From positions 1,858 through 65,857 of the forward strand of contig CAMMDS010000006.1 of the NCBI GenBank assembly GCA_946495655.1: a stretch of 64,000 bases of DNA. Direction: 5' to 3'. The stretch's first letter is position 1. Each line of letters opens with the position of its first letter. Both the position numbers and the translations under genes were made by a program. Positions 1 to 15,725 of the stretch are shown piece by piece. Source of the DNA: an uncultured Clostridium sp. (lineage in GTDB: Bacteria > Bacillota > Clostridia > TANB77 > CAG-508). The notes below the pieces were generated by a model. It ran no database searches, was not told where the DNA came from, and saw only the letters and a program-made list of their open reading frames with translations.

Positions 1-1
1 A

Positions 2-109
2 AAAATTATTGCTGAAGAAATGAATATAAACGAAAATGCAGTAAAACAGTTGAAATTACGAGCAATAAATAATTTGAAAAAATATATGGAGGGAAATTAT
101 GAAAAATAG
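2..109 (+). CDS. C-terminal end (partial) of a sigma-70-family / region-4 HTH regulator
   Basis: Frame 2 reads KIIAEEMNINENAVKQLKLRAINNLKKYMEGNYEK* (stop 107-109). The pattern 'I A e . l . i s . . t V k . . l . R A . . . L k' is the sigma-70 region 4.2 HTH. Truncated by the window edge. Confidence 0.55.
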   Translation, partial: KIIAEEMNINENAVKQLKLRAINNLKKYMEGNYEK

Positions 110-311
110 AACAAAATTTTATGAAATATTAGTAAAGGCAAGAACAGATGAAGTGTCAATGATTTTAGTAATAGGAAAGATAATGCCTCTTATTGATAAA
201 TATTCCTTAAATGAAAAAAATGTTATAGACCAAGATTTAAAGAGTATTTTAATTGAATACGCAATTAGTGTAGTAAAAGAAGAAAATTTTGCAGAAAAAT
301 TGGCTAAATAA
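99..311 (+). CDS. Hypothetical small helical protein (70 aa), sits where Tn916 orf8-like genes sit
   Basis: ORF in the track. Its ATG overlaps the stop of the upstream sigma-like gene (coupled). No recognisable motif. Confidence 0.4.
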   Translation: MKNRTKFYEILVKARTDEVSMILVIGKIMPLIDKYSLNEKNVIDQDLKSILIEYAISVVKEENFAEKLAK

Positions 312-682
312 AAAAATTTATAAAAAAAACGTAACCTTTTTCGTTTTCAAGTGCTGTTCATAGTAGAAGCGTAAAAAACTTCTGGTATGGATTGCACATT
401 GAAAATTGAATAATGTATTTGTTAGATCATACAAGAACTGTGTTTTAGGTGGGTTAGCAACCACTTAAATTAACAATAAGAATGTTATCTTATTGTGAAT
501 ACAGTTTAGGAAACTTTTGTATAGTCACAGCACGAGCGTAAAGTTATAAAGGTAGTCCATAATACTTTTATAATGGTGCGTCACACGCAATGAGTACAAG
601 CCAGAGTTCTGGTTGGTGAAATTCCAATGTTGCTAGAAACAATAGCAGTCTGACAAATGGGAAAAGTAAGAAAATAATAATA

Positions 683-720
683 TCTAAATTAGGGCTATTC
701 CCCCAATAGCCCTAATTAGA
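683..720 (+). terminator. Strong hairpin closing the 312-720 non-coding block
   Basis: ttagggctatt-ccccc-aatagccctaa is an 11-bp perfect stem, extendable to about 17 bp with one bulge. There is no long T-run after it. Confidence 0.4.
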
Positions 721-738
721 AAATCGGAGGCAAAAGAA

Positions 739-909
739 ATGTTAGATATTATTTCAATGGCTATATTAATGTTTATATTAATTGGATTACCTTTAATTCT
801 AATTATTATAGGTGGGAGTAAAAAAACCCCAGAAGAACAAGAATTAGAAGATGAAGAACAGATTAAATATTTGAATGAATATCAAGAAAAGAAAATAAAT
901 AAAAAATAA
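739..909 (+). CDS. Small membrane protein (56 aa), not in the supplied track
   Basis: ATG at 739 preceded by the RBS ggagg (726-730). Translation is MLDIISMAILMFILIGLPLILIIIGGSKKTPEEQELEDEEQIKYLNEYQEKKINKK*. One hydrophobic helix plus a charged tail. Confidence 0.45.
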   Translation: MLDIISMAILMFILIGLPLILIIIGGSKKTPEEQELEDEEQIKYLNEYQEKKINKK

Positions 910-920
910 TTTTGGAGGTT

Positions 921-1112
921 ATGATGGAGAGAAAAATATATAATTGGAAACAAGTTGTTTCATACGGTTTAATTGCATTACATAATTTACTAAATTCTGC
1001 AAATGAAGTAAATATAAAAAATATGCAAATATTTTATGAGCCTTTACAAGAATTACATTCTAAAAAAGAGGCAGAAAAATATGCAGAAATTTTATTAAAT
1101 AAAGAAAAATAA
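921..1112 (+). CDS. Hypothetical protein (63 aa)
   Basis: The track ORF is 912-1112. ATG 921 sits 3 nt after the ggagg at 914-918. A hairpin follows the stop. Confidence 0.4.
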   Translation: MMERKIYNWKQVVSYGLIALHNLLNSANEVNIKNMQIFYEPLQELHSKKEAEKYAEILLNKEK

Positions 1113-1151
1113 AAAGTTGGCAAATGCTGACTTTTTTATTTTGGAGAGGAA

Positions 1152-1394
1152 ATGATAATAATGAGTGAAAGATTAATTTATACAGTTCAAGAAGTGGCTA
1201 AAATTTTACATTCTAGTCCTAACTATATATACACTTTAATAGAAAAAGGTTACCTACCTGCTTTAAAACTTGGAAGTACAAAAATATTAAAATCTACATT
1301 AGAAAAATTTTTGATTGAAAACGAAGGAAATGATCTTTCAGATTTGACAAATATTAAAAAGTTAACTGCTAATGTAGGAGATGATAATATATAA
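1152..1394 (+). CDS. xis: Excisionase-family HTH DNA-binding protein (Xis)
   Basis: YTVQEVAKILHSSPNYIYTLIEKGYLPALKLGSTKI matches the MerR-like excisionase HTH pattern. Its stop overlaps the integrase start (ataATGg). Confidence 0.75.
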   Translation: MIIMSERLIYTVQEVAKILHSSPNYIYTLIEKGYLPALKLGSTKILKSTLEKFLIENEGNDLSDLTNIKKLTANVGDDNI

Positions 1395-2668
1395 TGGCTA
1401 ATGTAAATATAAAAAAGAGAGGTAAAGTATATCAATATCAATTTGAAATAGCTCCTGCAAAAGGAAAGCGAAAATGGATAACAAAATCGGGATTCAAAAC
1501 AAAAGCAGAGGCACAAGAAGAAGGAAATAAAGCATATACGGAATATTTGAACGCAGGTATTCCATTTAAAGAATGTAATATATCATATACTGATTATTTA
1601 GATTATTGGTTAGAAAATTATTGTAAAATAAATTTAAAATACAACACAATACAAGCATATAAGAATATAATAAAAAATCACATAGTTCCTAAATTAGGCA
1701 AATATAGATTATCAACATTGACAAGTGTAAAACTTAATTCATTTATAACTGAAATTTGTGAAGAAAATAATTTTGCACCAGCATATTTTAAAAATATTTT
1801 AAAGGTACTAAAAGGATCTTTTAGAGATGCTTGTAATATTTATGGATTTATAAAGTATAATCCTGCTAGAGATTTACGATTGCCACGATTCGACAAAATG
1901 CAAGAAAATATAAAACATTTATATACTCAAGAAGAAATAGATAAAATATTAAACAAATTTAAAGATAACGATACATTTACTTGTGTGTTCTTAACAGCTT
2001 GTTATACAGGAATGAGAACAGGAGAAGTATGTGCATTAGCTTGGGACGATATAGATTTTAGTAACGGAACTATAAATATTAAGCACAATGTATATGATAA
2101 ACCAAAAGATGATAAGGGAAGATGGTTTTTGGGAAGCACAAAAACTAAATCAGGAACAAGGAAAATTCATATAAGCAATACTTTATTGTTTGCATTGCGA
2201 AATTACAAAAATAAACAAGATTATTTGAAAAAACTTTATGGAGATAGATATGTCTATTACCATATTGAATATGTAAAAAATACTTCTGGCAAAATAAAAG
2301 AAATGCGAATAGTAAAAAATAATCCTAACGAAAAATATGAAAACGATATAGATTTAGTTTTTACTAAAGAAGATGGGACTTATACAGGAACAGATATAAC
2401 TCGTTCACCATTTAAGATTATTCGTAATGAATTAGGAATTAAGAGTAGGTTTTATGATTTAAGAGGAAGTTATGCAACTAAAATATTAAAAAATGGAGTT
2501 GAAATCAGAGATGTTGCAGATATTTTAGGACATAAAAATATCGAAACAACAGAAAATTTTTACATATCAAGCACAGAAGAATCTCGCAAATATGCAACTG
2601 ATATATATGACAGCATAATACAATCAAAAACCATAAAAGAAATAATTAAATATAAAATTGATTTATGA
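1394..2668 (+). CDS. int: Site-specific tyrosine integrase with N-terminal arm-type DNA-binding domain
   Basis: N-terminus KKRGKVYQYQFEI (AP2-like arm-binding domain), a SAM-like core-binding region, and a catalytic domain with TGMRTGE, YDLRGSYAT and LGHKNIETTENFY. Confidence 0.9.
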   Translation: MANVNIKKRGKVYQYQFEIAPAKGKRKWITKSGFKTKAEAQEEGNKAYTEYLNAGIPFKECNISYTDYLDYWLENYCKINLKYNTIQAYKNIIKNHIVPKLGKYRLSTLTSVKLNSFITEICEENNFAPAYFKNILKVLKGSFRDACNIYGFIKYNPARDLRLPRFDKMQENIKHLYTQEEIDKILNKFKDNDTFTCVFLTACYTGMRTGEVCALAWDDIDFSNGTINIKHNVYDKPKDDKGRWFLGSTKTKSGTRKIHISNTLLFALRNYKNKQDYLKKLYGDRYVYYHIEYVKNTSGKIKEMRIVKNNPNEKYENDIDLVFTKEDGTYTGTDITRSPFKIIRNELGIKSRFYDLRGSYATKILKNGVEIRDVADILGHKNIETTENFYISSTEESRKYATDIYDSIIQSKTIKEIIKYKIDL

Positions 2669-2707
2669 TTTCTTGTAATTTTCTTATGATTTCTTGTAAT
2701 TTTCTTA
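2666..2707 (+). repeat. Perfect 21-bp tandem direct repeat (2 copies) starting on the integrase stop codon
   Basis: tgatttcttgtaattttctta occurs at 2666-2686 and again at 2687-2707. Confidence 0.95.
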
Positions 2708-2970
2708 CTCATTGACTATTGTTTAAAAAAATAATATAATAAGAACGAATAATGTATAAAAAGATAATTTATACATTTGATTATATTTGGTAATAGAATA
2801 TAATGAGTGTGGTAAACGGATGTTGACATTGTCCACGATTTGTCCACAGAAAAATGATATTTATAATAAAAATAATACTAATAATATTGATAATTTTAAT
2901 GTTACTTAGTCCTCAAAAAGCCTGAAATATCAATAATATTATAAATATTAAATATATTGATAATACATAA

Positions 2971-3030
2971 GCAGCTACTTCATGCGGTTCGGGAAAGAAA
3001 TATAAGAATTGCTGCGGAAAGAACTCATAG
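2971..3030 (+). pseudogene. secA: 3'-terminal fragment of secA (C-terminal zinc-binding SEC-C motif), probable attR-side remnant
   Basis: Reads AATSCGSGKKYKNCCGKNS*. CGSGKKYKNCCG matches the SecA C-terminal CPCGSGKKYKNCCG motif as I recall it from B. subtilis. The first Cys is missing, an in-frame taa sits at 2968-2970, and prfB (the usual secA neighbour) is downstream. Confidence 0.6.
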
Positions 3031-3127: not shown

Positions 3128-3169
3128 AAAGAAGTGTAACCTAAATAAAATAGGGAACACTTCTTTTTT
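3128..3169 (+). terminator. Rho-independent terminator after the secA remnant
   Basis: aaagaagtgt ... acacttcttt is a 10-bp stem followed by a T-run. Confidence 0.6.
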
Positions 3170-3206
3170 ATCCATATAGAGTATAAAATAAAAGGAGATT
3201 AAAAAA

Positions 3207-6200
3207 ATGCCAAAGTTTGTAGAAGATGATGACATCGCTTTGAATATAAAAGCGACAAAACAATTTACTGATAGAGAAGAACCAAGAAAAGTATTTTGGG
3301 AAAAATATAACCAGATGTTAAATAATATGGGGAATAATAAAAATCCAATTCAAATAATTTCATATTATGGATTTGGGGGAATTGGAAAAAGTTCTTTGCT
3401 ACATAAAATAAGTGAAGAATTAGAAGAGCAAGCTAGTAATTCTAAAATAGAATTTATAGATTTCGAAAAATTAGTAGAGCTAAATAATAATGTATTAGAT
3501 GTTTTAAAAGTAATTAGACAGGATTTAAAAGATAAATATAAATTTTCGTTTCCAATTTTTGATTTAGTAGTTTATGTGTATGAAACTAAAATGGGAAAAA
3601 CCGCAACTAAGCCAGAGTTAAGCAGTATATTTGATGAAAATAAGGAGCTTGGATTTTTAAAAGATGTAATTGGAGAAATCCCACTAATTGGAACATTCGC
3701 AAAAGTAATTTATTATGCAGATGCAGGAAGAAATATGCTACAAGATAGATTAAAAAACCGTAAACTACGTGAACGTTTATTAGATATTGAAAATACATCA
3801 ATAGAAAATATAAAAGAACATTTAGCATATTATTTTGCTATAGATTTAAAAGAAAATTTAAAAAACGAAAAAGCACCATTTGTATTCTTTATAGATACAT
3901 ATGAAAAATTAGTTAATGAATTATCACAAATAGGCGATCCTTTAAAAAATGATTTATGGTTAAGATCTGATGAAGGATTGATTTGCAGAATACCTAATAC
4001 TTTATGGGTAATTGCAGGTAGAGAAAAACTAAAATGGGAAGAGCTTGATTCTAGTTGGAAAGGGACATTAGAACAACATTTATTAGGCACTTTATCTTTT
4101 GCTGATACAATGCAATTTTTAAAAACTGCAGGCATTGAAAATGAAGATTTAATTCATCAATTATATGCTTTAACACATGGGAATCCTATGTATTTAGATA
4201 TGTGTGTAGATACATATATCAAAGTGGCAGAAAAAGGTAAAACTCCAACCATAGAAGACTTTGGAGGAGATACAACAAAGTTAATAAAACGATTTTTAAT
4301 GTATATGAATGATATGGAAAGAGATTTTTCTATAATGCTTGCGTATGTTCCAGAATGGACAGATGAGACAATAGAAGATATATCAATAAAAATGAATGGT
4401 ACTTTTTCATTCTCACTCTATGAAAAAGTAAAGAAATTTTCTTTTATTGTTAATGAAAATGGAAAATATAAAATGCATGAAAATGTTAAAGATATTATTA
4501 TAGCAAATACTCCAGAAATACAGAAAAATAAATATCAACGAATCCTTCAAGAGGATACTAATATAAAATTAAATGAAGCAACCCAAATAGAGGAAAAGAG
4601 AATTAATGAAATTTTAAAAACAGAAAATAATGGAAAATCCGATGAAAAAATCGCATTTATAGATAACTATGAATCTAAATATACATACAGTCAGATTATC
4701 CGAAATTTGTATAATGAAATTTTAGAAGAAAAAGAAGAAAATTCTTTTAATGGTAAAGTATTATTTTTAATAGAAAAAATAAATGAATATGAGGATAGAT
4801 TTAATGAGCCAATTTATTTTAATGATTGGCAAAAAGTGCCTTTCCCAAAATCTAAATATAATAAATTATTAAAATCATTTAATAAATATGTTACATCAGA
4901 AATGATATATGAATATTATGAAGAATTGAAGGAATTATGGGGAAAATATAGTGAAGAAGCTATATTACCAATAAAGCATAATTTAAGATGGGATAATATA
5001 AAATTTAGTGAAAAAGAAATAAATCCTTTTCTAAATGCTATTGAAAGTAGTATAGGAAAAAATAATCTATACTATATATCAGTATATGGATTATGTGAGA
5101 AATCGCAAGAAGCAGCATTAGAGTTTGTAAAAAGTATAAAAGAATATAATGGTTCTAAAAATAGCTTTTATATGAAATTAATTTTAAGAGCATCATCTGA
5201 ATATATGTTAGAGCAATGTTATTTTAAAAATACGGCTCTTACACATGAATTTTATGAGCATTATTATCTCCACGAAAAAGATATCGCAGTAACAGCAATG
5301 GAAAATTTCTCAATTGCAATTAATACTTTAAAAGAAAATCCAGATCTTTTAGATTTAGATATATTAAAAAGACTTTATGGTGTATATGTAGGTTTTGATA
5401 TGCATAAAGAAAGGCCATTAACTAGCTTATTGTTTGAATATATTTATTCAATTAGATATATTGCACTAAAAACTAGTAATCAAGAAGTAATAGATTGTTT
5501 TTTACGAATCTTTAAAGAGTTTATGGGAGGAGATAATAATGAGAAAAATTCAATCTCAATCGATAAAATCCTATTATCTAAAACTTTAGACTTTTTAAGA
5601 GAATTAAAGTTGCGTTATGAAGAGCTTTATGGTAAAGACCATTACAATGTAAATGAAATGGAAGATTTTATAGATAAATTTGAAGATTTAACACCTGCAA
5701 AATTAGAAAGAATAATGAGAAGTAAAGTAGAACGATACGGATTTGGAGATAGAAGGACCCAGAGATCTTTAGAAACATATGCAATTGAAGTAAAAAATAC
5801 ATCTAAAAGTGGGGAAGAGGCTAAAGCATTTTTTGATATTATATTCTGCAATCTTAAAGATATGATTAAAACTTTTAATAAAGAAGAATTATATGAAAAG
5901 TCTGAACCATATAAAGATGCTCCAATCATTGCGTTTTGTAAATGGGTGGAAAATATAAAAGATTGTTTAGAAGAAATATGTAAAGATGAATATTACAATA
6001 GAATATTAGAAATTGATAGTATTTTATATAAATATTACGATGATTCAAAATTTGACGCATACTATATAGCATCATTGATTGAATATGATATTACACAATT
6101 TATTGAAACCTCTTCAAGACTAAAAGATGAGGCTCAAATTACTAATGCTATACAAATAGTTAAAGATATAATAGAACACAGATATACTAATGATTGTTTT

Positions 6201-6785
6201 CAAAAACCTATAATTGCATACGCATTATATAAAGTATATCATTTTATAAATAATAAAAAAATTAGTAGCTTAGATTATAAAGAATTGAAAGATACTTATT
6301 ACAATCAAATTGATACTTTAGAACAAGTAATAAAATATGAATTAAATGAAAATTTTGGACTAAGCTATGAATACGAATGGACTGAGAAAATATTTGCAAT
6401 ATTATCTGAAAAAGATGCTAATGCTTTTCATAATTATGATGCGGAAAAGCTAGAAAAATTCCTAAAAATAATAGAAGACATGAAAATGCTCCATGAAATA
6501 TATGTAAAAGAATATGGTAAAAAATCACGTAAATCTATTTTAGCTCAAGCTTATACAGGTCTTCTTGAAATTATAACTTTTTTAAAAAATGGAAACGACA
6601 TTTTAGATAAAGCTTTAATATTAGCAGATTCTGAAGATGAAGATTTAAAGTTAGAGTTAACAGAAATTAAAAATATAGCTGATACATATATTGCAATTCA
6701 AAAAAATTCTAAAAATTTTAATGGTTTAGTATTATTTGATTATAAATTAACAGATTTGCATAATATAACAAATGAATCAAAATAA
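3207..6785 (+). CDS. NB-ARC/STAND-class P-loop NTPase with long TPR-like (TPR_12-type) C-terminal region, no recognisable effector domain
   Basis: RBS aaaggag. FTDREEP pre-P-loop motif. Walker A GFGGIGKS (aa 55-62). Walker B FVFFIDTYE (D230). TLWVIAGRE. LLGTLSFADTMQFL. GNPMYL (GLPLAL-like, aa 325-330). About 800 aa of helical repeats follow, with LYGKDHYNV / EYGKKSRKS-type TPR signatures. Confidence 0.75.
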   Translation: MPKFVEDDDIALNIKATKQFTDREEPRKVFWEKYNQMLNNMGNNKNPIQIISYYGFGGIGKSSLLHKISEELEEQASNSKIEFIDFEKLVELNNNVLDVLKVIRQDLKDKYKFSFPIFDLVVYVYETKMGKTATKPELSSIFDENKELGFLKDVIGEIPLIGTFAKVIYYADAGRNMLQDRLKNRKLRERLLDIENTSIENIKEHLAYYFAIDLKENLKNEKAPFVFFIDTYEKLVNELSQIGDPLKNDLWLRSDEGLICRIPNTLWVIAGREKLKWEELDSSWKGTLEQHLLGTLSFADTMQFLKTAGIENEDLIHQLYALTHGNPMYLDMCVDTYIKVAEKGKTPTIEDFGGDTTKLIKRFLMYMNDMERDFSIMLAYVPEWTDETIEDISIKMNGTFSFSLYEKVKKFSFIVNENGKYKMHENVKDIIIANTPEIQKNKYQRILQEDTNIKLNEATQIEEKRINEILKTENNGKSDEKIAFIDNYESKYTYSQIIRNLYNEILEEKEENSFNGKVLFLIEKINEYEDRFNEPIYFNDWQKVPFPKSKYNKLLKSFNKYVTSEMIYEYYEELKELWGKYSEEAILPIKHNLRWDNIKFSEKEINPFLNAIESSIGKNNLYYISVYGLCEKSQEAALEFVKSIKEYNGSKNSFYMKLILRASSEYMLEQCYFKNTALTHEFYEHYYLHEKDIAVTAMENFSIAINTLKENPDLLDLDILKRLYGVYVGFDMHKERPLTSLLFEYIYSIRYIALKTSNQEVIDCFLRIFKEFMGGDNNEKNSISIDKILLSKTLDFLRELKLRYEELYGKDHYNVNEMEDFIDKFEDLTPAKLERIMRSKVERYGFGDRRTQRSLETYAIEVKNTSKSGEEAKAFFDIIFCNLKDMIKTFNKEELYEKSEPYKDAPIIAFCKWVENIKDCLEEICKDEYYNRILEIDSILYKYYDDSKFDAYYIASLIEYDITQFIETSSRLKDEAQITNAIQIVKDIIEHRYTNDCFQKPIIAYALYKVYHFINNKKISSLDYKELKDTYYNQIDTLEQVIKYELNENFGLSYEYEWTEKIFAILSEKDANAFHNYDAEKLEKFLKIIEDMKMLHEIYVKEYGKKSRKSILAQAYTGLLEIITFLKNGNDILDKALILADSEDEDLKLELTEIKNIADTYIAIQKNSKNFNGLVLFDYKLTDLHNITNESK

Positions 6786-6826
6786 AAATGAACGTTAATA
6801 GAATGCGTAAATGTAAGAATATTAAC

Positions 6827-6855
6827 TTGCTTATTCTTAATAGTTATAGTATAAT
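6827..6855 (+). promoter_or_regulatory. SigA-type promoter for prfB
   Basis: ttgctt (6827-6832), a 17-nt spacer, then tataat (6850-6855). Confidence 0.45.
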
Positions 6856-6902
6856 ACCGCTAGTAAAAGATATTTGATTTATGATAGATAGGAAGTGATA
6901 TT

Positions 6903-8019
6903 TTGATAGATTTACAAGAAATAAGTAGTAAACTAGAAAATTTAGATAATAAATTAAATCAAATAGGTGATTCACTTTGACATAAACAACTTAGAAAAAG
7001 AATTGACTAATTTAGAACAGCAAACTACCGAAACTAGTTTCTGGGAAGATTTTAAGAATAGTTCAAAAGTTTTAAAAAGAATAAATGAAATCAAAAGTAG
7101 AGTAGAGCAGTTTAAAAAAATAAAAAGTGAAATTTCAAATCTAATCGAATTAGTAGAATTGTTAAAACAAGAAGATGATGAAGATTTAGAAAAAGAAGTG
7201 CAAAATAGAAGTAAAAAACTTGAAGAAGAGATTGAAAAACTTGAAATTTCTACACTTCTATCAGGAAAATATGATATAAATAATGCAATTTTAACTCTCC
7301 ATCCAGGTGCTGGGGGAACAGAGGCTCAAGATTGGGTTGAAATGCTATATCGAATGTATACAAGATGGGCTAATGCAAATGGATATAAAATAGAAGAGCT
7401 AGATTATTTAGCAGGAGATGAAGCTGGAATAAAAAGCGTTACTTTTTCAGTTTCAGGAGATTATGCATATGGATATCTAAAAGGAGAACAAGGTGTTCAT
7501 AGATTAGTTAGGATTTCTCCATTTGATGCAGGGGGGAGGAGACATACTTCTTTTGCATCAGTAGAAGTCCTTCCAGAAATAACAGATGATATTGAAATTG
7601 ACATTAATCCAGATGATTTAAAAATAGACACATATAGAGCATCAGGTGCAGGAGGACAACATGTAAACAAAACTTCATCTGCTGTAAGAATCACACACAT
7701 TCCCACAGGAATAGTTGTTGCATGTCAAACAGAGAGATCACAAATTCAAAATAGGGAAACGGCTATGAAAATGCTCAAATCTAAATTGTTACACATAAAA
7801 GAACAAGAGCACAAAGATACAATAGATGAACTTAAAGGTATTCAGATGGAAATAGCATGGGGAAGTCAGATTCGTTCTTATGTTTTTTGCCCATATACTT
7901 TGGTAAAAGATCATCGAACTAATTATGAAGTAGGTAATGTACAATCTGTAATGGATGGAGATTTAAATGGATTCATTGACAGTTTTCTAAAATATAATAA
8001 TACAAATGGAAACAATTAA
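6903..8019 (+). CDS. prfB: Peptide chain release factor 2, with programmed +1 frameshift
   Basis: The zero frame runs TTG 6903 ... ggt gat tca ctt tga (stop 6978-6980). The +1 frame continues gac ata aac... to 8019. GGQ motif (SGAGGQHVNKT) and SPF motif (RISPFD) are present. Total length is 3n+1. Confidence 0.92.
6965..6981 (+). promoter_or_regulatory. prfB recoding site: internal SD-like aggtga plus CTT TGA C slip site
   Basis: aggtga at 6965-6970, then ctt tga c at 6975-6981. This is the canonical RF2 autoregulatory signal. Confidence 0.85.
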
Positions 8020-8100
8020 TTAAAACAAAAATATAATATATTATAGGTAAAATATGATTATATTTATGCCTTTTACATTTACATTAAAGGACTGTTCATA

Positions 8101-9282
8101 ATGGAAACTATAGTATTAAAATTTGGAGGGAGTTCTCTTGCAGACAATATTAAATTAAATATTGTGGCAAATAAAATTATTGATTTTTACAACAAAAAAA
8201 ACAAAGTAATTGTTGTTCTTTCTGCGCAAGGAAAAACAACAGACAACTTAATAAAAGAAGCTAAAGAATTATCATACGAGCCAGACAAAAGAGAAATGGA
8301 TGTATTACTTAGTACAGGTGAGCAAGTTTCTATTTCTAAACTTGCAATATTATTAAAAAGATTAGGATATAAATCTATTTCTCTAACTGGTTGGCAAGCA
8401 GGAATTTATACATCAAACACAAATGAAGAATCTAAAATAGAGTATATAAATACAGAAAGAATTCAAAAAGAATTAGAGAATGACAATATAGTGATTATTG
8501 CTGGATTTCAAGGAATAAATGACAATAAAGACATTACTACACTTGGAAGAGGTGGTTCTGATACAACTGCTGTTGCAGTTGCTGCTGCCATGAAAGCTGA
8601 TCATTGTTATATTTTCTCTGATGTAGATGGCGTATATTCTACAGATCCAAATAAAATTACAGATGCAAAGAAAATAGAAGAATTATCATATGACGAAATG
8701 CTCGATTTATCTAATGAAGGAGCAAAAGTTCTTCATAATAGATGTGTAGAAATAGCTCAAAAATATAATGTTTTGATTGAAACAGGTTCTACTTTTAATA
8801 ATAATATTGGTACTCAAATCAATGATAAAATAGAAGAAAGTACTGTCAAAAGTATTGTTAAGAATGATAATATTTTTTTAATAACATTAAAATATGAGAA
8901 TTACAATGAAGATATATTAAATAAATTATATAATTCATTATTAAATAACGATATTATTCCTACAAATATAATAAATAATAGTACAAATAGTTTTAATATT
9001 AGTTTTACAATTAAAACTTCAGACCTAGGTAAATTTCAGGAATTATTAGAATCAGAACTTAGTATGTTTAGTTCATCATTCACTAATATTTCTAGGATTT
9101 CTCTTGTAGGTTATGGAATAATGAATAATAAAAATATAATGAAAAAAACAATAGAACTATTAAATTTAAATTCAGTTGAGATATTTTCTACTCAATTAGA
9201 GGAATGCAAATTTTCTATAATGCTTAAAGAAAAAATAAGTAATAAAGTATTAGAACAATTACACCATGAATTAATAAAATAA
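8101..9282 (+). CDS. Aspartate kinase (DapG-like, with ACT-domain C-terminus)
   Basis: KFGGSSL, GFQG...TTLGRGGSDTTAVAVAAA, FSDVDGVYSTDP. Confidence 0.85.
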   Translation: METIVLKFGGSSLADNIKLNIVANKIIDFYNKKNKVIVVLSAQGKTTDNLIKEAKELSYEPDKREMDVLLSTGEQVSISKLAILLKRLGYKSISLTGWQAGIYTSNTNEESKIEYINTERIQKELENDNIVIIAGFQGINDNKDITTLGRGGSDTTAVAVAAAMKADHCYIFSDVDGVYSTDPNKITDAKKIEELSYDEMLDLSNEGAKVLHNRCVEIAQKYNVLIETGSTFNNNIGTQINDKIEESTVKSIVKNDNIFLITLKYENYNEDILNKLYNSLLNNDIIPTNIINNSTNSFNISFTIKTSDLGKFQELLESELSMFSSSFTNISRISLVGYGIMNNKNIMKKTIELLNLNSVEIFSTQLEECKFSIMLKEKISNKVLEQLHHELIK

Positions 9283-9408
9283 ATATTAAAATATAATCAC
9301 ATTAAACACATGTTATATATTAGTAATAAACATAAAAAAGTATAAATTTTTAAATAAATAGCAATAATTAAAATAAATAAATGAAATATGGAAGGAGAAC
9401 ATAAGAAA

Positions 9409-10410
9409 ATGGCTTTTTACTCATATATATTTTCAGCAAATTATAAAAGATTTCTAGATAACCTAAAAAAAGTAGCAAAAAAAGAAAAGAAAAATTATTT
9501 TAGATTAATATTAGATACAGGATATTGTGTATTTAGATATGGATTTTGTCTTAGCGATTATTTAAATTATAAGTTATACAACAAAAACAAAATTGAAAGA
9601 AAAAAATATGTTAGCACTAGAACAGAAAATAAATTCTATGAAACTGTATCTCCAAGTGCATATAAGCAAAGATATACTATTAAGCCAAACTTCTTGGCCG
9701 ATTTCAAAGAATATACTAAAAGAGACTTTATAGTACCAAAAGAAGATAATTACGAAGAATTTAATAAGTTTTTAGACAGTCATGAAGTATTTATGTCTAA
9801 ACCTTATGATGGATTAGGTGGGGCAGACGTTAAGAAAGAATATACAAAAGATATTTCAGATAGAAAAGAATATTTTTATAATGCAATAAAAAATAGAATC
9901 TTTTTAGAAGAGCTTGTTATACAACATCATGATATGAATAAGTTATGTAGTAAAAGTGTAAATACAATGCGTATAATGACATTTAATAATAATGGCACTC
10001 CTCAAATTATTTGGATGGGATTACGTGTAGGAAACGGAGTAAATTCAATAGACAATTTCCATGCAAAAGGAATGGGGGTAAATATAGATATCAATACTGG
10101 TAAACTTATTGGTAATGCCATAGATAAAGACTTAAATGAATATTCTGAACATCCTGTAACTCATGTAAAATTTGATGGTTTTCAGATTCCTTGTTTTGAA
10201 GAAGCAAAGAAAATGGTTTTAAAAGCTAGTTTAGAATCAGATAAAATATTAGTAGTTGGATGGGATGTTGCAATATCTGAAAATGGTCCTGTTATTATAG
10301 AGGGGAATAGAAGACCCGGTTTTGACATAGTACAAGTATTATCTGGTGGAAGAATGGATATAGTTAATAATGTTTTAAATTGTATAGATAAAATCAATAA
10401 CAATAAATAA
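9409..10410 (+). CDS. ATP-grasp fold protein (sugar-transfer-associated ATP-grasp family)
   Basis: SKPYDGLGGADV, FLEELVIQH, NTMRIMTF, GWDVAISENGPVIIEGNRRPG. Start moved to ATG 9409, 11 nt after ggaaggag. Confidence 0.5.
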   Translation: MAFYSYIFSANYKRFLDNLKKVAKKEKKNYFRLILDTGYCVFRYGFCLSDYLNYKLYNKNKIERKKYVSTRTENKFYETVSPSAYKQRYTIKPNFLADFKEYTKRDFIVPKEDNYEEFNKFLDSHEVFMSKPYDGLGGADVKKEYTKDISDRKEYFYNAIKNRIFLEELVIQHHDMNKLCSKSVNTMRIMTFNNNGTPQIIWMGLRVGNGVNSIDNFHAKGMGVNIDINTGKLIGNAIDKDLNEYSEHPVTHVKFDGFQIPCFEEAKKMVLKASLESDKILVVGWDVAISENGPVIIEGNRRPGFDIVQVLSGGRMDIVNNVLNCIDKINNNK

Positions 10411-10582
10411 ATTACAATAAATAATAAATTTGAGACACTGTAATATACAGTGTCTCTTTCTTATAGTAGATTTTGGTCAACCAACTCTTCTAGAGGAAAA
10501 GCTTTCAATATTAGTTCTAAAAAGACAAGTTGTGAATATAATATTTTATATAAGTTTATTATATTATATTGGAGGTTTTTTT

Positions 10583-10894
10583 ATGACTATTGATGAGAGA
10601 AAGAATAATAATATTTCTCAAAATAATAATGTTATACAAAATTTAATTCTAGAAAATAGAGAAAAATTAAGTATTTCTGGAGCACTAGATGTACTTAGTT
10701 TTGATGATCAAATAGTAATTTTAGAGACGGAATTAGGATTATTAACTGTCAAAGGAGAAAATTTAAGAATAAATAAACTTAGTTTGGATACTGGAGAGGT
10801 AATTGTTGATGGAGAAATATCTAGCTTAGGATATAGTGAAAAGGATTTTGAAAAAAAGAATTCTGGAGGTATCTTAGGTAAAATCTTTAGATAG
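10583..10894 (+). CDS. yabP: Sporulation protein YabP
   Basis: LSISGALDVLSFDDQIVILETELGLLTVKGENLRINKLSLDTGEVIVDGEI ... GKIFR. RBS ggagg, then ATG at 10583. The track's N-terminal extension is rejected. Confidence 0.85.
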   Translation: MTIDERKNNNISQNNNVIQNLILENREKLSISGALDVLSFDDQIVILETELGLLTVKGENLRINKLSLDTGEVIVDGEISSLGYSEKDFEKKNSGGILGKIFR

Positions 10895-10905
10895 GAGGCT
10901 CCAAT

Positions 10906-11358
10906 TTGAATCAACTATATATTTTTTTTAATTTTATATTAACAGGATTTATTATTGGAATATTATATGATATTTTTAGAATTATTAGAAAAAGTTTTAA
11001 AACATTAGATTTAGTAACATATATACAAGATTTCATATTTTGGATTTTAACAGGTATAATTCTTTTATATAGTATTTTTACATTTAACAATGGAGAATTA
11101 AGAGGATATGTTTTTATAGGTATTCTAATAGGCATATTATTATATATACTTCTTATTAGTAAATATTTTGTAAATCTAGCAGTGAAATTAATAAAATTAA
11201 TAAAGCGAATATTATATTATCCATTTAATAAAATATATAATTTTAGCTTAAAATACATTTTTAGACCAATTTATAAAAAAATTTCTAAAATTAATATTAA
11301 ATTACCTAAAATAAATCTAAAAAAGAAAGAAAATGACAATTTATCTAATAAAATTTAG
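10906..11358 (+). CDS. yabQ: Spore cortex biosynthesis protein YabQ
   Basis: FILTGFIIGILYDIFRIIRK motif, membrane protein, directly after yabP. TTG start with RBS aggagg. Confidence 0.75.
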   Translation: MNQLYIFFNFILTGFIIGILYDIFRIIRKSFKTLDLVTYIQDFIFWILTGIILLYSIFTFNNGELRGYVFIGILIGILLYILLISKYFVNLAVKLIKLIKRILYYPFNKIYNFSLKYIFRPIYKKISKINIKLPKINLKKKENDNLSNKI

Positions 11359-11841: not shown

Positions 11842-13182
11842 ATGGATTTAAAAGATTATACTTTAGTTGAATTACGCCAGTTAGCAAAGGAAAACGGTGC
11901 TAAAAATGTATCTAAATTAAAAAAAGATGAATTATTAGAGTTTTTAAAAAATATTGAAGAAGATAAAAATAATTTAATAAATCAAAATCAAGAGGAATCG
12001 AGTGAAATACAAGTTGAGTCAACTGATGAAAGTGATAATGAATCTGGTTACAAATTAACTAACGCTGATGATGAAATAGTAGAAGGTGTATTAGAAGTTT
12101 TGCCAGATGGCTATGGCTTTTTAAGAGGTGAAAATTATTTATCAACTGCAAAAGATGTATATATATCGCCTGTACAAATTAGAAGATTCAAATTAGATAA
12201 TGGTGATAAAGTTAAAGGTATTGCTAGAATGCCAAAAGAAGGAGAAAAATTTCCTGCTTTAATATATGTTGGAGAAGTAAACGGAGATGCTCCAGAAATG
12301 GCTTTTAGAAGAAGAAAATTTGATGATTTAATTCCTATTCATCCAAATGAAAGAATTCATTTAGAAACCTCTCCAAATGAATATGCCATGAGAATAATTG
12401 ATTTAATGTCTCCAATTGGTAAAGGACAAAGAGGAATGATTGTTGCTCCTCCAAAAGTTGGAAAAACTACTCTTATTAAGAAAATCGCTAATAGTATAAG
12501 TATAAATAATCCTGAAATTGAATTAATAGTACTTCTAATAGATGAAAGACCTGAAGAAGTTACTGATATGAAACGTTCAATTAAAGGAGATGTTATATAT
12601 TCTACTTTTGATGAATTACCAGAACATCATGTAAAAGTAGCTGAAATGGTATTGGAGAGAGCCAAAAGATTAACAGAGCAAAATAAAGATGTTGTTATAT
12701 TATTAGATAGTATAACAAGACTTGCTAGAGCATACAACTTAGTAATTCCATCTTCAGGAAGAACATTGTCCGGCGGATTAGATCCTAGTGCTTTACATAA
12801 ACCAAAAAAATTCTTTGGTGCTGCTAGAAACATAGAGAATGGGGGAAGCCTTACAATTCTTGCTACAGCATTAATTGAAACAGGTAGTAGAATGGATGAT
12901 GTAATATTTGAAGAGTTTAAAGGTACTGGTAATATGGAAGTTCATCTTGACAGAGGACTTTCTGAAAAAAGAATATTCCCAGCAATCGACATAAATAAAT
13001 CTGGTACAAGACGTGAAGAATTATTATTATCACCAAAAGAATTAGAAGTTGTATTCGCTTTAAGAAAAGCATTATCAACTAGATCAGTTGCAGATATTAC
13101 AGAGCAATTAATTGAGCAAATGATGTTAACAAAGAATAACTCAGAATTCTTAGATAAGATGTCAGAATTTTTAAAAATGTAA
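11842..13182 (+). CDS. rho: Transcription termination factor Rho
   Basis: Rho_N ([28 protein letters not shown]), a CSD-like RNA-binding domain, the P-loop [10 protein letters not shown], and [24 protein letters not shown]. Confidence 0.93.
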
Positions 13183-13321
13183 ATAATTTAATAAATAATA
13201 AAAATTGGGAAGAGGCTATTAATATAAAATTTCCTCCCAATTTTTTCATTATTTTAAAAATGTATCTTTCCACACACTATATAAAATAATAAATATATTA
13301 AAATAAAAAAGGAGAGGAGGG

Positions 13322-13570
13322 ATGCTTATGTTAAAGAGATTTAATAATAAAAAGAATCTTACCGGCAATTCTATAAAAGAAGCACGAGAAAGAAAAGGAT
13401 TGAGTAGAATTCAATTATCAATTAAATTAGAATTGTTGGGGATTTATCTAGACAGAATTCAAATTTACAGGATAGAAGGAAATAAATTAATGATAAAAGA
13501 TTTTGAACTAATCGGGATTGCGAAAATTTTAGATCTAGATTTAAATAGACTTAAAGATTTATTAGATTAA
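13322..13570 (+). CDS. XRE-family HTH transcriptional regulator (82 aa)
   Basis: IKEARERKGLSRIQLSIKL is an HTH_3 pattern. The start could be ATG 13328 (better RBS spacing). Confidence 0.65.
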   Translation: MLMLKRFNNKKNLTGNSIKEARERKGLSRIQLSIKLELLGIYLDRIQIYRIEGNKLMIKDFELIGIAKILDLDLNRLKDLLD

Positions 13571-13610
13571 AACTTATTATAATGTATATAAATTAAGAAG
13601 GAAGAGGAAA

Positions 13611-13655
13611 GTGCAATAACATATTTCTATTTTTTTTAGAGATATGTTATTGCAC
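13611..13655 (+). terminator. Long hairpin downstream of the XRE gene
   Basis: gtgcaataacatat / atatgttattgcac is a 14-bp perfect stem, extendable by tcta/taga. No clear T-run follows. Confidence 0.4.
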
Positions 13656-14627
13656 AAAATCAAAGTTTTGCGCAATAAGGTATAGGGGCAAAAATATATA
13701 ACCACATACATAGCTATTTCTCGTAATCCTTGCTATCAGCCTTGTACAAAGCCTTCATACTCATTTATTTAGACTAATAACTATATTACTTTCTTATAAA
13801 ATCCCCTTAAAACTGATTCTGAAGACTCATTATTTGGGTTGGATTTTTTTTCATTATTGTAACCAGTTTTTTTATTTAAAAAATTATAAGATTTTTATTT
13901 TTTTCTTTAATTTTTTAAAAACCTTATATTTCAGTATTTTGCCTTATTTCACGGACAACAAACTATATGTCTAAAAAATAAAAACGCCTTAAAATCGATT
14001 CTCGTGCGTCATATTTTTGGCACTTTTCTTATAATTAATATATCTCTTGCTAATTACTATAATTTGCATATTTATATCATATATTATAGTATTTTTTATT
14101 ATTTCTATAATTATCAGACTTTTATATATCTTTAAATAAATAACTTTTAATTATAAATGAATAATTTTATTACTTTATTATTAAATTGCCTTAGAAACGA
14201 TTTTAGAGCCTTGTAAATGTATTACTAATATTCAATTTCAAAATATAATTTATAATAAATACTATTATAAAGATATTATATTAATTGCTATTAAATATAC
14301 TAAATTTTATATTTATAACAAATGTTCGTTTTTAAAAATTACAATGTTTGTATTACAAAATTATAATTTTTAAAAATTTAAATATTTATAAATTTCTAAA
14401 AATTAATTTTTTATATTTAAAAAAGTTTTTATTTATAAAATTTATTATTTTTCAAATAGAAGATTGTACAAAATTTTATTTAATGCATTTAAAAATTTTA
14501 CATATCTTTATATATCCTATAAAAATGTGCTGTTCCCCCCTACTCTACTGTTCTAACCAAATAAAAAAAGATTAGTTGTATTTCAAACTAATCTATATTT
14601 TGCAATTAAATTTGTTGTAACTAATAA

Positions 14628-15479
14628 TTACTCATTATTTAAGAAATTCATTACTAAATCTATAATTACATCTTTTTCCTTAGGATTTGACTCAGCAATA
14701 AGTAATGTTAATGCAGCTAATGTATTATTATCAATTGTTTGCTTTCCATTTTTATATAAAATTCCATAAAAGTTTAGAAAATATATAAATAAAGTTGCTG
14801 CAATTCTTTTGTTTCCATCTGCAAAAACATGATTTTTTACGATTAAATATAGAAAATTTGCAGCTTTTTCTTCTATGCTTTTATAAATATCTTGTCCATC
14901 AAAACTTTGGTATATATTACCTATTATTGATTCTAAACCTTTATCTCTTTCTACTGCAAATAAAGAACTTTCTTCATTAAATCTAAGTTTATTAATAACT
15001 TCTATACAATTACTATACTCTATTTTTCTTTCGTCTACATTTCCATTTACTTTCTTTAATGTTCTATGATCATAATCATCTAATAAATCTAATGCTATTG
15101 AATATTCGCCAATTACTTTTAATATTTCTTTCGCATCAGATTCTTCAAGTCTTTCATCAATTCTATTAGCAATATCAATTAGTTTAACTGTTTTTTCTAA
15201 ATATTCTAATCTTTTTTGATTGACTGCATATCCTTTTAACATATAATCTTTTAAAACTTTGTTTGCCCAACGTCTAAATATGATTCCCTTATTAGATTTT
15301 ACTCTATAGCCAATGCTGACTATCATATCTAAATTATAATATTCAATATTCCTTGTAACTTTTCTATCTCCTTCTTTTTGAACTGTCGCAAATTTTGCGA
15401 CAGTTGGAACATCCTGTAATTCTTCGTTTAAAGCATTATTAATATGTTTTCCAATAGTTTTTACATCTCTATCAAACAA
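14628..15479 (-). CDS. RhuM-like N-terminal region fused to a Fic/DOC domain, 5' end apparently damaged
   Basis: The Fic motif HVFADGNKRIAA is present, with RhuM-like TVWLNREQLAELFDRDVKTIGKHI upstream. The frame is open to 15524 with no start codon there, and the track start is an internal TTG. An out-of-frame LKIYKN just upstream resembles the usual RhuM N-terminus. Confidence 0.6.
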   Translation of the reverse strand: MFDRDVKTIGKHINNALNEELQDVPTVAKFATVQKEGDRKVTRNIEYYNLDMIVSIGYRVKSNKGIIFRRWANKVLKDYMLKGYAVNQKRLEYLEKTVKLIDIANRIDERLEESDAKEILKVIGEYSIALDLLDDYDHRTLKKVNGNVDERKIEYSNCIEVINKLRFNEESSLFAVERDKGLESIIGNIYQSFDGQDIYKSIEEKAANFLYLIVKNHVFADGNKRIAATLFIYFLNFYGILYKNGKQTIDNNTLAALTLLIAESNPKEKDVIIDLVMNFLNNE

Positions 15480-15725
15480 TTCAGCTAATTGTTCTCTGTT
15501 TAGCCATACTGTTTTTATATATTTTCAATAAATATGTATAAAAAATCAAAAAAATTATACATGTTTTAAAAATATGTATAATTTTTTGTTTGTATTTTCA
15601 AAGTATTAAAATTAAATATCAATAAATTGTATATTTTACTATTGAATTTTTTTATTTCTTAGTATAATATATTATTATATTTTGTGCAATTAGAAAAATA
15701 TATTATATATAAAGGAGTAAAATTT

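Follow-up and report, generated by a model that had tools for sequence, protein, structure and literature searches.

A single gene at positions 3207..6785 (+ strand) of a 64,000-nucleotide stretch of DNA from an uncultured Clostridium sp. (GenBank assembly GCA_946495655.1, contig CAMMDS010000006.1; the whole stretch is hereafter the window) encodes a protein of 1192 amino acids, in which a STAND-like nucleoside triphosphatase (NTPase) is followed by an alpha-solenoid without an effector domain. The gene lies between a remnant of secA and prfB. Its open reading frame (ORF), which opens with ATG in the ORF list, is exactly as an initial annotation made from the DNA letters alone had described it, and the ribosome-binding site noted there is found in the Shine-Dalgarno sequence AGGAG (3193..3197), 9 nt 5' of the ATG. 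The protein is best described as a member of an unnamed family within the STAND superfamily, one that lacks an effector throughout and has as its hallmark an insertion in the nucleotide-binding domain.

The NOD module and its helical insertion

The conserved N-terminal module, here called the NOD (aa 1-445; 3207..4541, on the + strand like the other features of the window described below), consists of a nucleotide-binding domain, a helical lid and a winged helix. It opens with FTDREEPR (aa 20-27; 3264..3287), a variant of the STAND hhGRExE motif that lies 5' of the P-loop, and continues with a Walker A motif GFGGIGKS (aa 55-62; 3369..3392) containing K61, a Walker B motif FVFFIDTYE (aa 225-233; 3879..3905) in which D230 is followed by T-Y-E233, WVIAGRE (aa 267-273; 4005..4025) with the sensor-1 arginine R272, the motif LLGTLSFADTMQFL (aa 292-305 of the 1192-residue protein), HGNPMYL (aa 324-330; 4176..4196), which represents the GxP motif of the helical lid, and a winged-helix hairpin with YKMHEN (aa 414-434; 4446..4508), whose H424 is an MHD-like histidine. 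The six motifs listed in the initial annotation are all present and in the order given there (aa 20-26, 55-62, 225-230, 267-273, 292-305 and 325-330), and the approximately 50 residues said to precede the P-loop number 54.

Conservation was scored residue by residue in two sets of relatives, 95 and 28 in number, with identities reaching down to 29%. The key residues of the six motifs are invariant or conserved at 90% or more in the 95 relatives, far beyond chance. In the hhGRExE-type motif, where D replaces G, residues F20, D22, R23, P26 and R27 are invariant in the 95 sequences, with D22 and P26 still at 90% or more in the wider comparison; G55, G58, G60 and K61 of Walker A are invariant, as are D230, Y232 and E233 of Walker B (T231 is conserved in 96%), G271 and R272 of sensor 1 (E273, 96%) and G325 and P327 of the GxP motif. 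The histidine of YKMHEN in the predicted winged helix, H424, is retained in 86%. The first 20 residues are predicted to be disordered and the conserved module begins at about residue 15. Its other end is marked by a sharp conservation boundary at about aa 440-445 in an alignment of 33 full-length homologues, in which the identity to the query per 40-residue block is 61-85% over the N-terminal module versus 16-46% over the remainder.

The nucleotide-binding domain is interrupted by a helical insertion of about 125 residues, which is a hallmark of the family. In the secondary structure predicted by AlphaFold2 the insertion spans aa 96-218 (3492..3860) and comprises about nine helices, situated between strand beta2 and Walker B. 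Its motif, FxFPxFDL..Y.Y..K.G, is kept down to 29% identity. F115 is invariant, F118, K128, P159, L206, F210 and D213 are conserved at 90% or more over the same range of relatives, and the most conserved stretch of the whole protein, aa 121-160 at 85%, lies inside the insertion. Membrane insertion through the hydrophobic stretch at aa 147-173 was considered and rejected, as the maximum Kyte-Doolittle hydropathy over 19 residues is only 1.24; no transmembrane segment was found by Kyte-Doolittle hydropathy anywhere in the 1192-residue protein.

In AlphaFold2 models of the full-length protein and of aa 1-451, each with a mean predicted local distance difference test (pLDDT) score of 81.8, an alpha/beta nucleotide-binding domain is followed by a helical lid and a winged helix and then by an uninterrupted all-alpha region at aa 437-1192. 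The winged-helix strands at 414-417 and 420-423 are predicted in both models. A Foldseek search of the PDB with the N-terminal model returned 58 matches at E<=1e-3, and the 50 listed, all with a probability of 1.00, include Cdc6/Orc, CED-4, Sr35, ZAR1, NRC2/3/4, 6mfv, MalT (8bob), Dark/Apaf-1, Roq1/RPP1, Avs3 (8dgc) and NLRP2/7/9. With the full-length model, 6mfv ranks first. The fold alone would fit either STAND or its sister Cdc6/Orc group, which score equally; the two are separated by the hhGRExE-like, GxP and MHD-like motifs, and the protein is therefore filed under STAND. The features listed for STAND proteins by Leipe et al. (2004), namely Walker A and B, the hhGRExE variant, the sensor-1 arginine, the GxP lid, the winged-helix histidine and the NOD fold, are all found. 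Thus, by its motifs and predicted fold, the protein belongs to the STAND superfamily, as the initial annotation had proposed.

Placement below the level of superfamily is another matter, since the same annotation had called the motifs diagnostic of NB-ARC/AP-ATPases and this was not upheld. Pfam gave sub-threshold P-loop matches only: Bac_DnaA at 22.2 bits (cutoff 23), NB-ARC at 15.5 bits (cutoff 23.5) over aa 38-75 only, and NACHT at 12.6 bits (cutoff 26.7). Because both profile thresholds were missed and Walker B reads D-T-Y-E rather than DD, the protein is assigned to neither NB-ARC/AP-ATPase nor NACHT; the D-[small]-x-E form of its Walker B resembles that of NACHT, which we take as a resemblance only. 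Phmmer and profile searches against the PDB detected similarity at the level of the P-loop only, the best match being 9h2l, an NB-ARC protein (E ~0.002), with a marginal sequence match to ZAR1 (E 0.15). PADLOC returned one marginal match, mad8 (E 0.0074, aa 54-105), and no match to an Avs model, and the searches of NCBIfam and PHROGs found none for the 1192-residue protein.

The solenoid tail and the extent of the family

Beyond the NOD, AlphaFold2 predicts an all-alpha solenoid of 747 residues (aa 446-1192; 4542..6782), a putative ligand sensor. By Foldseek it matches TPR/HEAT solenoids, including Ctr9, Ski3, SA2 and karyopherins, which bears out the helical-repeat tail of the initial annotation, though its length had been put at about 800 residues. 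The tail had further been described as being of the KLC-type TPR kind. Pfam detects no TPR family in it even at E<=1, and an hhalign match to the TPR tails of related proteins has an E of 0.027 and is confined to aa ~790-865, where two degenerate KLC-type TPR units can be discerned (ELYGKDH and RYGFGDRRTQ). The description is accurate for the tails of these cousins and holds for the query only to the extent of the two degenerate units. The cousins, deposited as 'tetratricopeptide repeat protein' (MBR5868879.1, WP_297701713.1 and MBQ4581623.1), share 39-45% identity with the query NOD over aa 15-442, the same N-terminal start and the insertion; their tails, unlike the unmodelled solenoid of the query, are bona fide KLC/NPHP3-type TPR_10/TPR_12 arrays (E 1e-99). 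One and the same NOD carries at least three unrelated types of tail: that of the query, that of P0021-29, which is unmodelled, and the KLC/NPHP3-type arrays.

Searches of Pfam, PADLOC, NCBIfam and PHROGs found no fused effector domain and no nuclease, TIR, protease or helix-turn-helix (HTH) module. In the tail, no His, Asp, Cys or Arg is conserved and neither a HEPN (Rx4-6H) nor an HD motif occurs, which makes a cryptic enzyme there unlikely. This agrees with the initial annotation, which had seen no such module, and no known effector or regulatory domain that would place the protein in an already described family turned up. The absence extends to the relatives. A word-indexed search found 249 homologues of the 1192-residue protein, and in an exhaustive comparison of aa 1-445 with representatives at 50% identity 1858 clusters matched at E<=1e-3, with 1207 remaining at <=1e-10 and 549 at <=1e-30. 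The match starts within about 20 residues of the N-terminus in each of the 120 relatives listed and in almost every one of the 150 best representatives. As judged from these sequences, an effector is missing family-wide. Our search of the literature on effector-less STAND proteins found nothing pertinent. The family is probably already contained, uncharacterised, among the 589 clades of the census in PMC13581612, given that the cousins have entered nr under the name 'tetratricopeptide repeat protein'.

The secA-prfB slot, homologous loci and selection

Upstream of the gene, positions 2971..3030 encode AATSCGSGKKYKNCCGKNS*, which matches the zinc-finger tail of SecA when compared with the intact secA C-termini of relatives; the secA remnant of the initial annotation is thereby supported, and we also recognize in it the right junction (attR) of a neighbouring integrase element. 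The tyrosine integrase of that element (1394..2668) is 100% identical to the protein at locus L019 of our set of compared loci, and its orthologue at L009 has a Phage_integrase Pfam match. The element ends exactly at the duplicated secA 3' tail and resembles an integrative element of recent transfer whose target is the 3' end of secA. Between the remnant and the gene, a terminator-like hairpin (3128-3166) is followed by a U-run (feature 3128..3172); it folds at -16.7 kcal/mol (z -4.57), with equally good folds in 0 of 200 shuffles. The statement that the gene is flanked by terminators and a promoter is thus correct for the upstream hairpin. Folding with shuffles revealed no comparable terminator on the 3' side (z -0.07), and promoter-like matches, 43 versus 39+/-6 in shuffles, are not in excess in this DNA of 25% guanine-cytosine (GC) content. 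Downstream, prfB (6903..8019) has PCRF and RF-1 Pfam matches on its orthologue. It begins with TTG at 6903 and has the canonical programmed +1 frameshift site CTT TGA C at 6975-6981, with the main frame running to 8019; the start of the 350-aa ORF listed from 6967 is therefore not the true one. Further along the window, at ~13200-15500 and just past a rho-like gene ending at 13182, the GC skew turns negative after being positive and the genes pass from the + to the - strand, which may represent a replication-related strand switch (terminus or origin region).

The interval between secA and prfB was compared in reference genomes at 80 prfB loci. The closest of these genomes (prfB 79-88% identical) are metagenome-assembled genomes of uncultured gut Clostridia; the upstream flank reaches at least 4 kb in 62 of the 80 and at least 8 kb in 55. 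None of the 80 has a homologue of the gene near prfB within the fetched flank, and the gene is thus not a housekeeping gene conserved at this position among related genomes. Where secA was detected, more distant Clostridia have a gap of 91-232 bp (median 108) and the source organism's own clade one of 254-9474 bp (median 2189), whose cargo varies from genome to genome. This cargo includes a MerR gene with a DXS-like gene, a gene that opens with a RhuM/PDC-S05-like stretch, a PMT_2-like gene, and, in the closest reference genome (L018 194-9924; prfB 88%), a 9.7-kb block of eight essentially unannotated genes between the secA tail and prfB. The L018 block encodes membrane-like proteins and, directly upstream of prfB, a 714-aa protein with a weak TPR_8 match. 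The long, variable gaps and differing cargo indicate that the secA-prfB interval is a hypervariable cargo slot in this clade.

With respect to how the gene came to lie in this slot, we considered that it might be cargo of the adjacent tyrosine-integrase element, or else a functionless, decaying remnant, given that it is situated 540 bp downstream of the integrase and that the flanks of its closest copy, discussed below, are decayed. Positions 1-3023 of the window are 99.2% identical to L019 6179-9201, whereas the backbone from prfB onward is ~82% identical, and the element of L019 stands without the gene: 723 bp of unrelated DNA are present where the window has 3.9 kb including the gene. This rules out the gene as cargo of the element. 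The intact ORF in at least 20 contigs, the invariant catalytic motifs and the purifying selection on the NOD (dN/dS 0.04-0.09, see below) likewise rule out a remnant, so that we consider this explanation, in either form, extremely improbable. The initial annotation had proposed an insertion at an integration hotspot next to an integrative element. The hotspot and the proximity of the element hold, while the gene does not lie within the element; a partner encoded on that element, also suggested there, is unlikely, because the element occurs without the gene in L019 and the gene without the element in L001 and L011-L017. As the L019 interval is unrelated DNA, no clean empty site with shared flanks was found, nor were any direct repeats found flanking the gene.

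Homologues of the gene occupy seven different loci. An 87%-identical orthologue (L009/L010) is in full synteny with the window. For a 93%-identical copy, found on 20 contigs (L001-L008), DNA homology starts only from the ribosome-binding site (3193); in L001 it covers some 150 codons at the start of prfB and resumes only for the final ~50, leaving a decayed, frameshifted stub of 157 aa. Since the prfB stub is carried along in L001-L008, the gene has travelled with a piece of its neighbour. Upstream of the gene, loci of this type (L001 4203-8558, also L002-L008) have dTMP kinase, MazG, nucleoside deoxyribosyltransferase and UDG; beyond the stub come genes for a sigma factor, for His_Phos and DUF6076 proteins and for three large serine recombinases. 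Such a locus has the look of chromosomal DNA that a mobile element captured, or that was rearranged beside one. More distant full-length homologues are situated between Abi_2/RhuM and polA (L011-14), before ftsY (L015), before tyrS (L016), near LonC (L017) and near def (L098). Just upstream of the family member in L016 (7024-7389), and also in L101, a 122-aa GTP_EFTU_D2 fragment follows nusA; it may be an infB remnant, which would again suggest an insertion that brought collateral gene fragments.

The rates of synonymous (dS) and non-synonymous (dN) substitution differ strongly along the gene. Between the source gene and L001, dN/dS is 0.086 for the NOD and 0.312 for the tail; between the source gene and L009, the corresponding values are 0.042 and 0.332. 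The NOD is thus under strong purifying selection and the tail evolves 4-8 times faster, its dN/dS reaching 0.6 in windows of 100 codons. These values indicate that the gene is functional and that its tail is evolving as sensor domains do. Against L009, aa 601-800 form a hyper-divergent mosaic patch, with dN 0.38 and dS 0.84. Over the whole gene dS is 0.17-0.28, and the value for L009, 0.28 (NOD 0.21; gene 3207-6782 versus L009 3962-7501), is well below the 0.85 that this pair of genomes shows in the adjacent prfB (6967-8016 versus L009 7674-8723), which suggests that the gene was exchanged more recently than the backbone. Taken together, the low dS of the gene and the patch at aa 601-800 point to recombination and a mosaic history.

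A metagenome scan added 64 further loci. All-versus-all clustering of 109 neighbour proteins from 24 non-redundant loci revealed no recurrent partner family, and only members of the family itself recur as neighbours. These are tandem paralogues in L110 (276-6794), L114 (7971-13555) and L115 (5081-10700), which share ~40% identity with the query NOD and are also effector-less. Several neighbours are of types associated with defence. The tandem pair of L115 is followed by a complete type I restriction-modification system; Abi_2 and RhuM lie beside the family member in L011-14; a Schlafen/AlbA_2-HATPase protein is present in L118 and a PIN toxin in L106. In L122, a TIR-Sel1/TPR protein of 692 aa (3746-5821) abuts a 1296-aa member (5838-9725) on its upstream side, with a ThsB-like, TIR-only protein of 173 aa (9736-10254) downstream on the opposite strand, an arrangement that could represent a sensor with a trans effector. 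In L146, a CARF-PD(D/E)xK nuclease of the Csx1/Can-like kind (6711-7889, E 8e-107) ends 100 nt upstream of a member (7989-11087). Taking 1.53% as the null for defence neighbours (Lee et al. 2026, PMC13581612), a strict count finds a defence neighbour at no fewer than 4 of the 24 non-redundant loci, for a binomial P of ~5e-4 against a null of 1.5%, a figure based on criteria other than theirs and on a small sample; a looser count finds one at 6 of 24.

The L122 and L146 arrangements, together with the tandem paralogues, are what one would expect of a sensor-only NLR whose effector or helper, for example a TIR protein, CARF nuclease or paralogous STAND helper, is encoded elsewhere, after the manner of plant sensor/helper NLR pairs. 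We consider this unlikely, given that the clustering found no recurrent partner family, that the source gene is flanked by a secA remnant with a terminator on one side and prfB on the other, that the integrase element and the gene occur without each other, and that the tandem paralogues are themselves effector-less.

A putative effector-less sensor

The accessory, mobile behaviour of the gene, the recurrent defence neighbours and the sensor-like evolution of the tail favour the reading that the protein senses phage or mobile elements. We therefore propose, with a probability of about 55%, that it is an uncharacterised, effector-less NLR-like (STAND) sensor that blocks phage or mobile-element propagation; the sensor is probably defensive. 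If it works as Avs, bNACHT, Apaf-1 and plant NLRs do, the protein at rest would be an ADP-bound, autoinhibited monomer with H424 and R272 at the nucleotide. The solenoid would capture a foreign protein of a phage or mobile element, and nucleotide exchange would then open the NOD, which would oligomerise. As there is no fused effector and no conserved partner gene, the output would most likely be provided by the oligomer itself, via trapping of an essential protein of the invader or clustering of the conserved 125-aa insertion; recruitment of a host factor would rank second, and an effector or helper encoded elsewhere third. The end result would be that propagation of the phage or element is blocked. 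In its boldest form, the proposal would hold that the ~550 clusters at 50% identity are all NLR-like immune receptors without an enzymatic effector, in which ligand-triggered oligomerisation itself defends, either because an essential phage protein is trapped or because the insertions are brought together into an execution module like the N-terminal helices of the plant CC-NLR resistosome; we offer this by analogy and regard it as a long shot.

Several observations weigh against the proposed immune function. No match at the level of hidden Markov models (HMMs) ties the protein to any validated defence system, and relatives were found neither on IMG/VR viral contigs in a pattern scan nor in PHROGs. 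The enrichment test is rough, as it counts single HMM matches within +/-3 genes and borrows its null from another method, and about 18 of the 24 neighbourhoods hold only housekeeping or unannotated genes. Repeat tails evolve faster in non-immune proteins too. Effector-less STAND clades are often non-immune, with 391 of 589 clades not called defence-associated (PMC13581612).

These points bear on the possibility that the protein is a non-immune STAND scaffold or regulator, in which the solenoid would sense an endogenous ligand or partner and act through protein-protein contact, like a MalT/AfsR-type protein without the DNA-binding domain. Such a role would be in keeping with a family that is effector-less as a whole, with the many loci among housekeeping genes (ftsY, tyrS, polA and prfB), with the presence of MalT (8bob) among the structural matches and with the frequency of non-defence STAND clades noted above. 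It is harder to reconcile with the patchy presence of the gene (absent from the locus in all 80 related genomes) in a hypervariable slot, its occurrence at seven loci, its capture beside recombinases and the recurring defence neighbours, or with the swapped tail types, the raised dN/dS of the tail and the lack of an HTH or other regulatory output domain. We regard this role as a minority possibility that deserves to be kept in view.

The immune reading can also be set against described STAND systems. Like Avs/AVAST proteins (Gao 2020, 2022; PMC13581612), the protein is the product of a single large gene in which a STAND NOD precedes a mostly TPR-like alpha-solenoid sensor of >400 aa, and the two share horizontal mobility, sensor diversification and, tentatively, defence-island neighbours, with Avs3 (8dgc) matching structurally at a probability of 1.00. 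Avs proteins, however, depend for cell death on an effector at the N-terminus (a nuclease, protease, SIR2 or TIR domain, among others), and the present family has none; the query also lacks a PADLOC Avs match, its NOD can be aligned with theirs in sequence at the P-loop only, and it has the 125-aa insertion. The characterised Avs and bNACHT proteins are tripartite, and deletion or mutation of the effector abolishes their activity. From bNACHT proteins (PF05729; Kibby et al. 2023) the query further differs in falling short of the NACHT profile by the margin given above.

Among the other comparisons, the PH0952-type archaeal STAND-TPR protein (PDB 6mfv) is the best full-length structural match (E 2.6e-5, probability 1.00; NOD alone 8e-6) and likewise combines a NOD with helical repeats and no obvious effector, but it shares only 12-14% identity with the query, is 641 aa long versus 1192 aa, and has low TM-scores of 0.17-0.31. 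The NB-ARC/AP-ATPases (Apaf-1, CED-4 and plant CNL/TNL proteins) share the fold of nucleotide-binding domain, lid and winged helix, the GxP motif and the MHD-like histidine, and provide the best marginal sequence matches; the query differs from them in having no CARD, CC or TIR domain and in a tail that is an alpha-solenoid, not WD40 or LRR. MalT/LuxR-type regulators have in common with it a NOD with a superhelical-repeat sensor and the logic of ligand-driven oligomerisation, but end in an HTH output domain, which neither Pfam nor NCBIfam detects in the query.

In this clade of low-GC gut Clostridia the secA-prfB interval, for its part, serves as a hotspot for cargo. Uncharacterised STAND proteins are common; what makes the family interesting is the consistent absence of an effector together with defence-like genomic behaviour: a sizeable family of a sensor joined to a switch, behaving like an accessory, defence-associated gene, that is never found with an effector would represent either a non-immune offshoot of the STAND superfamily or an undescribed form of prokaryotic immune output.

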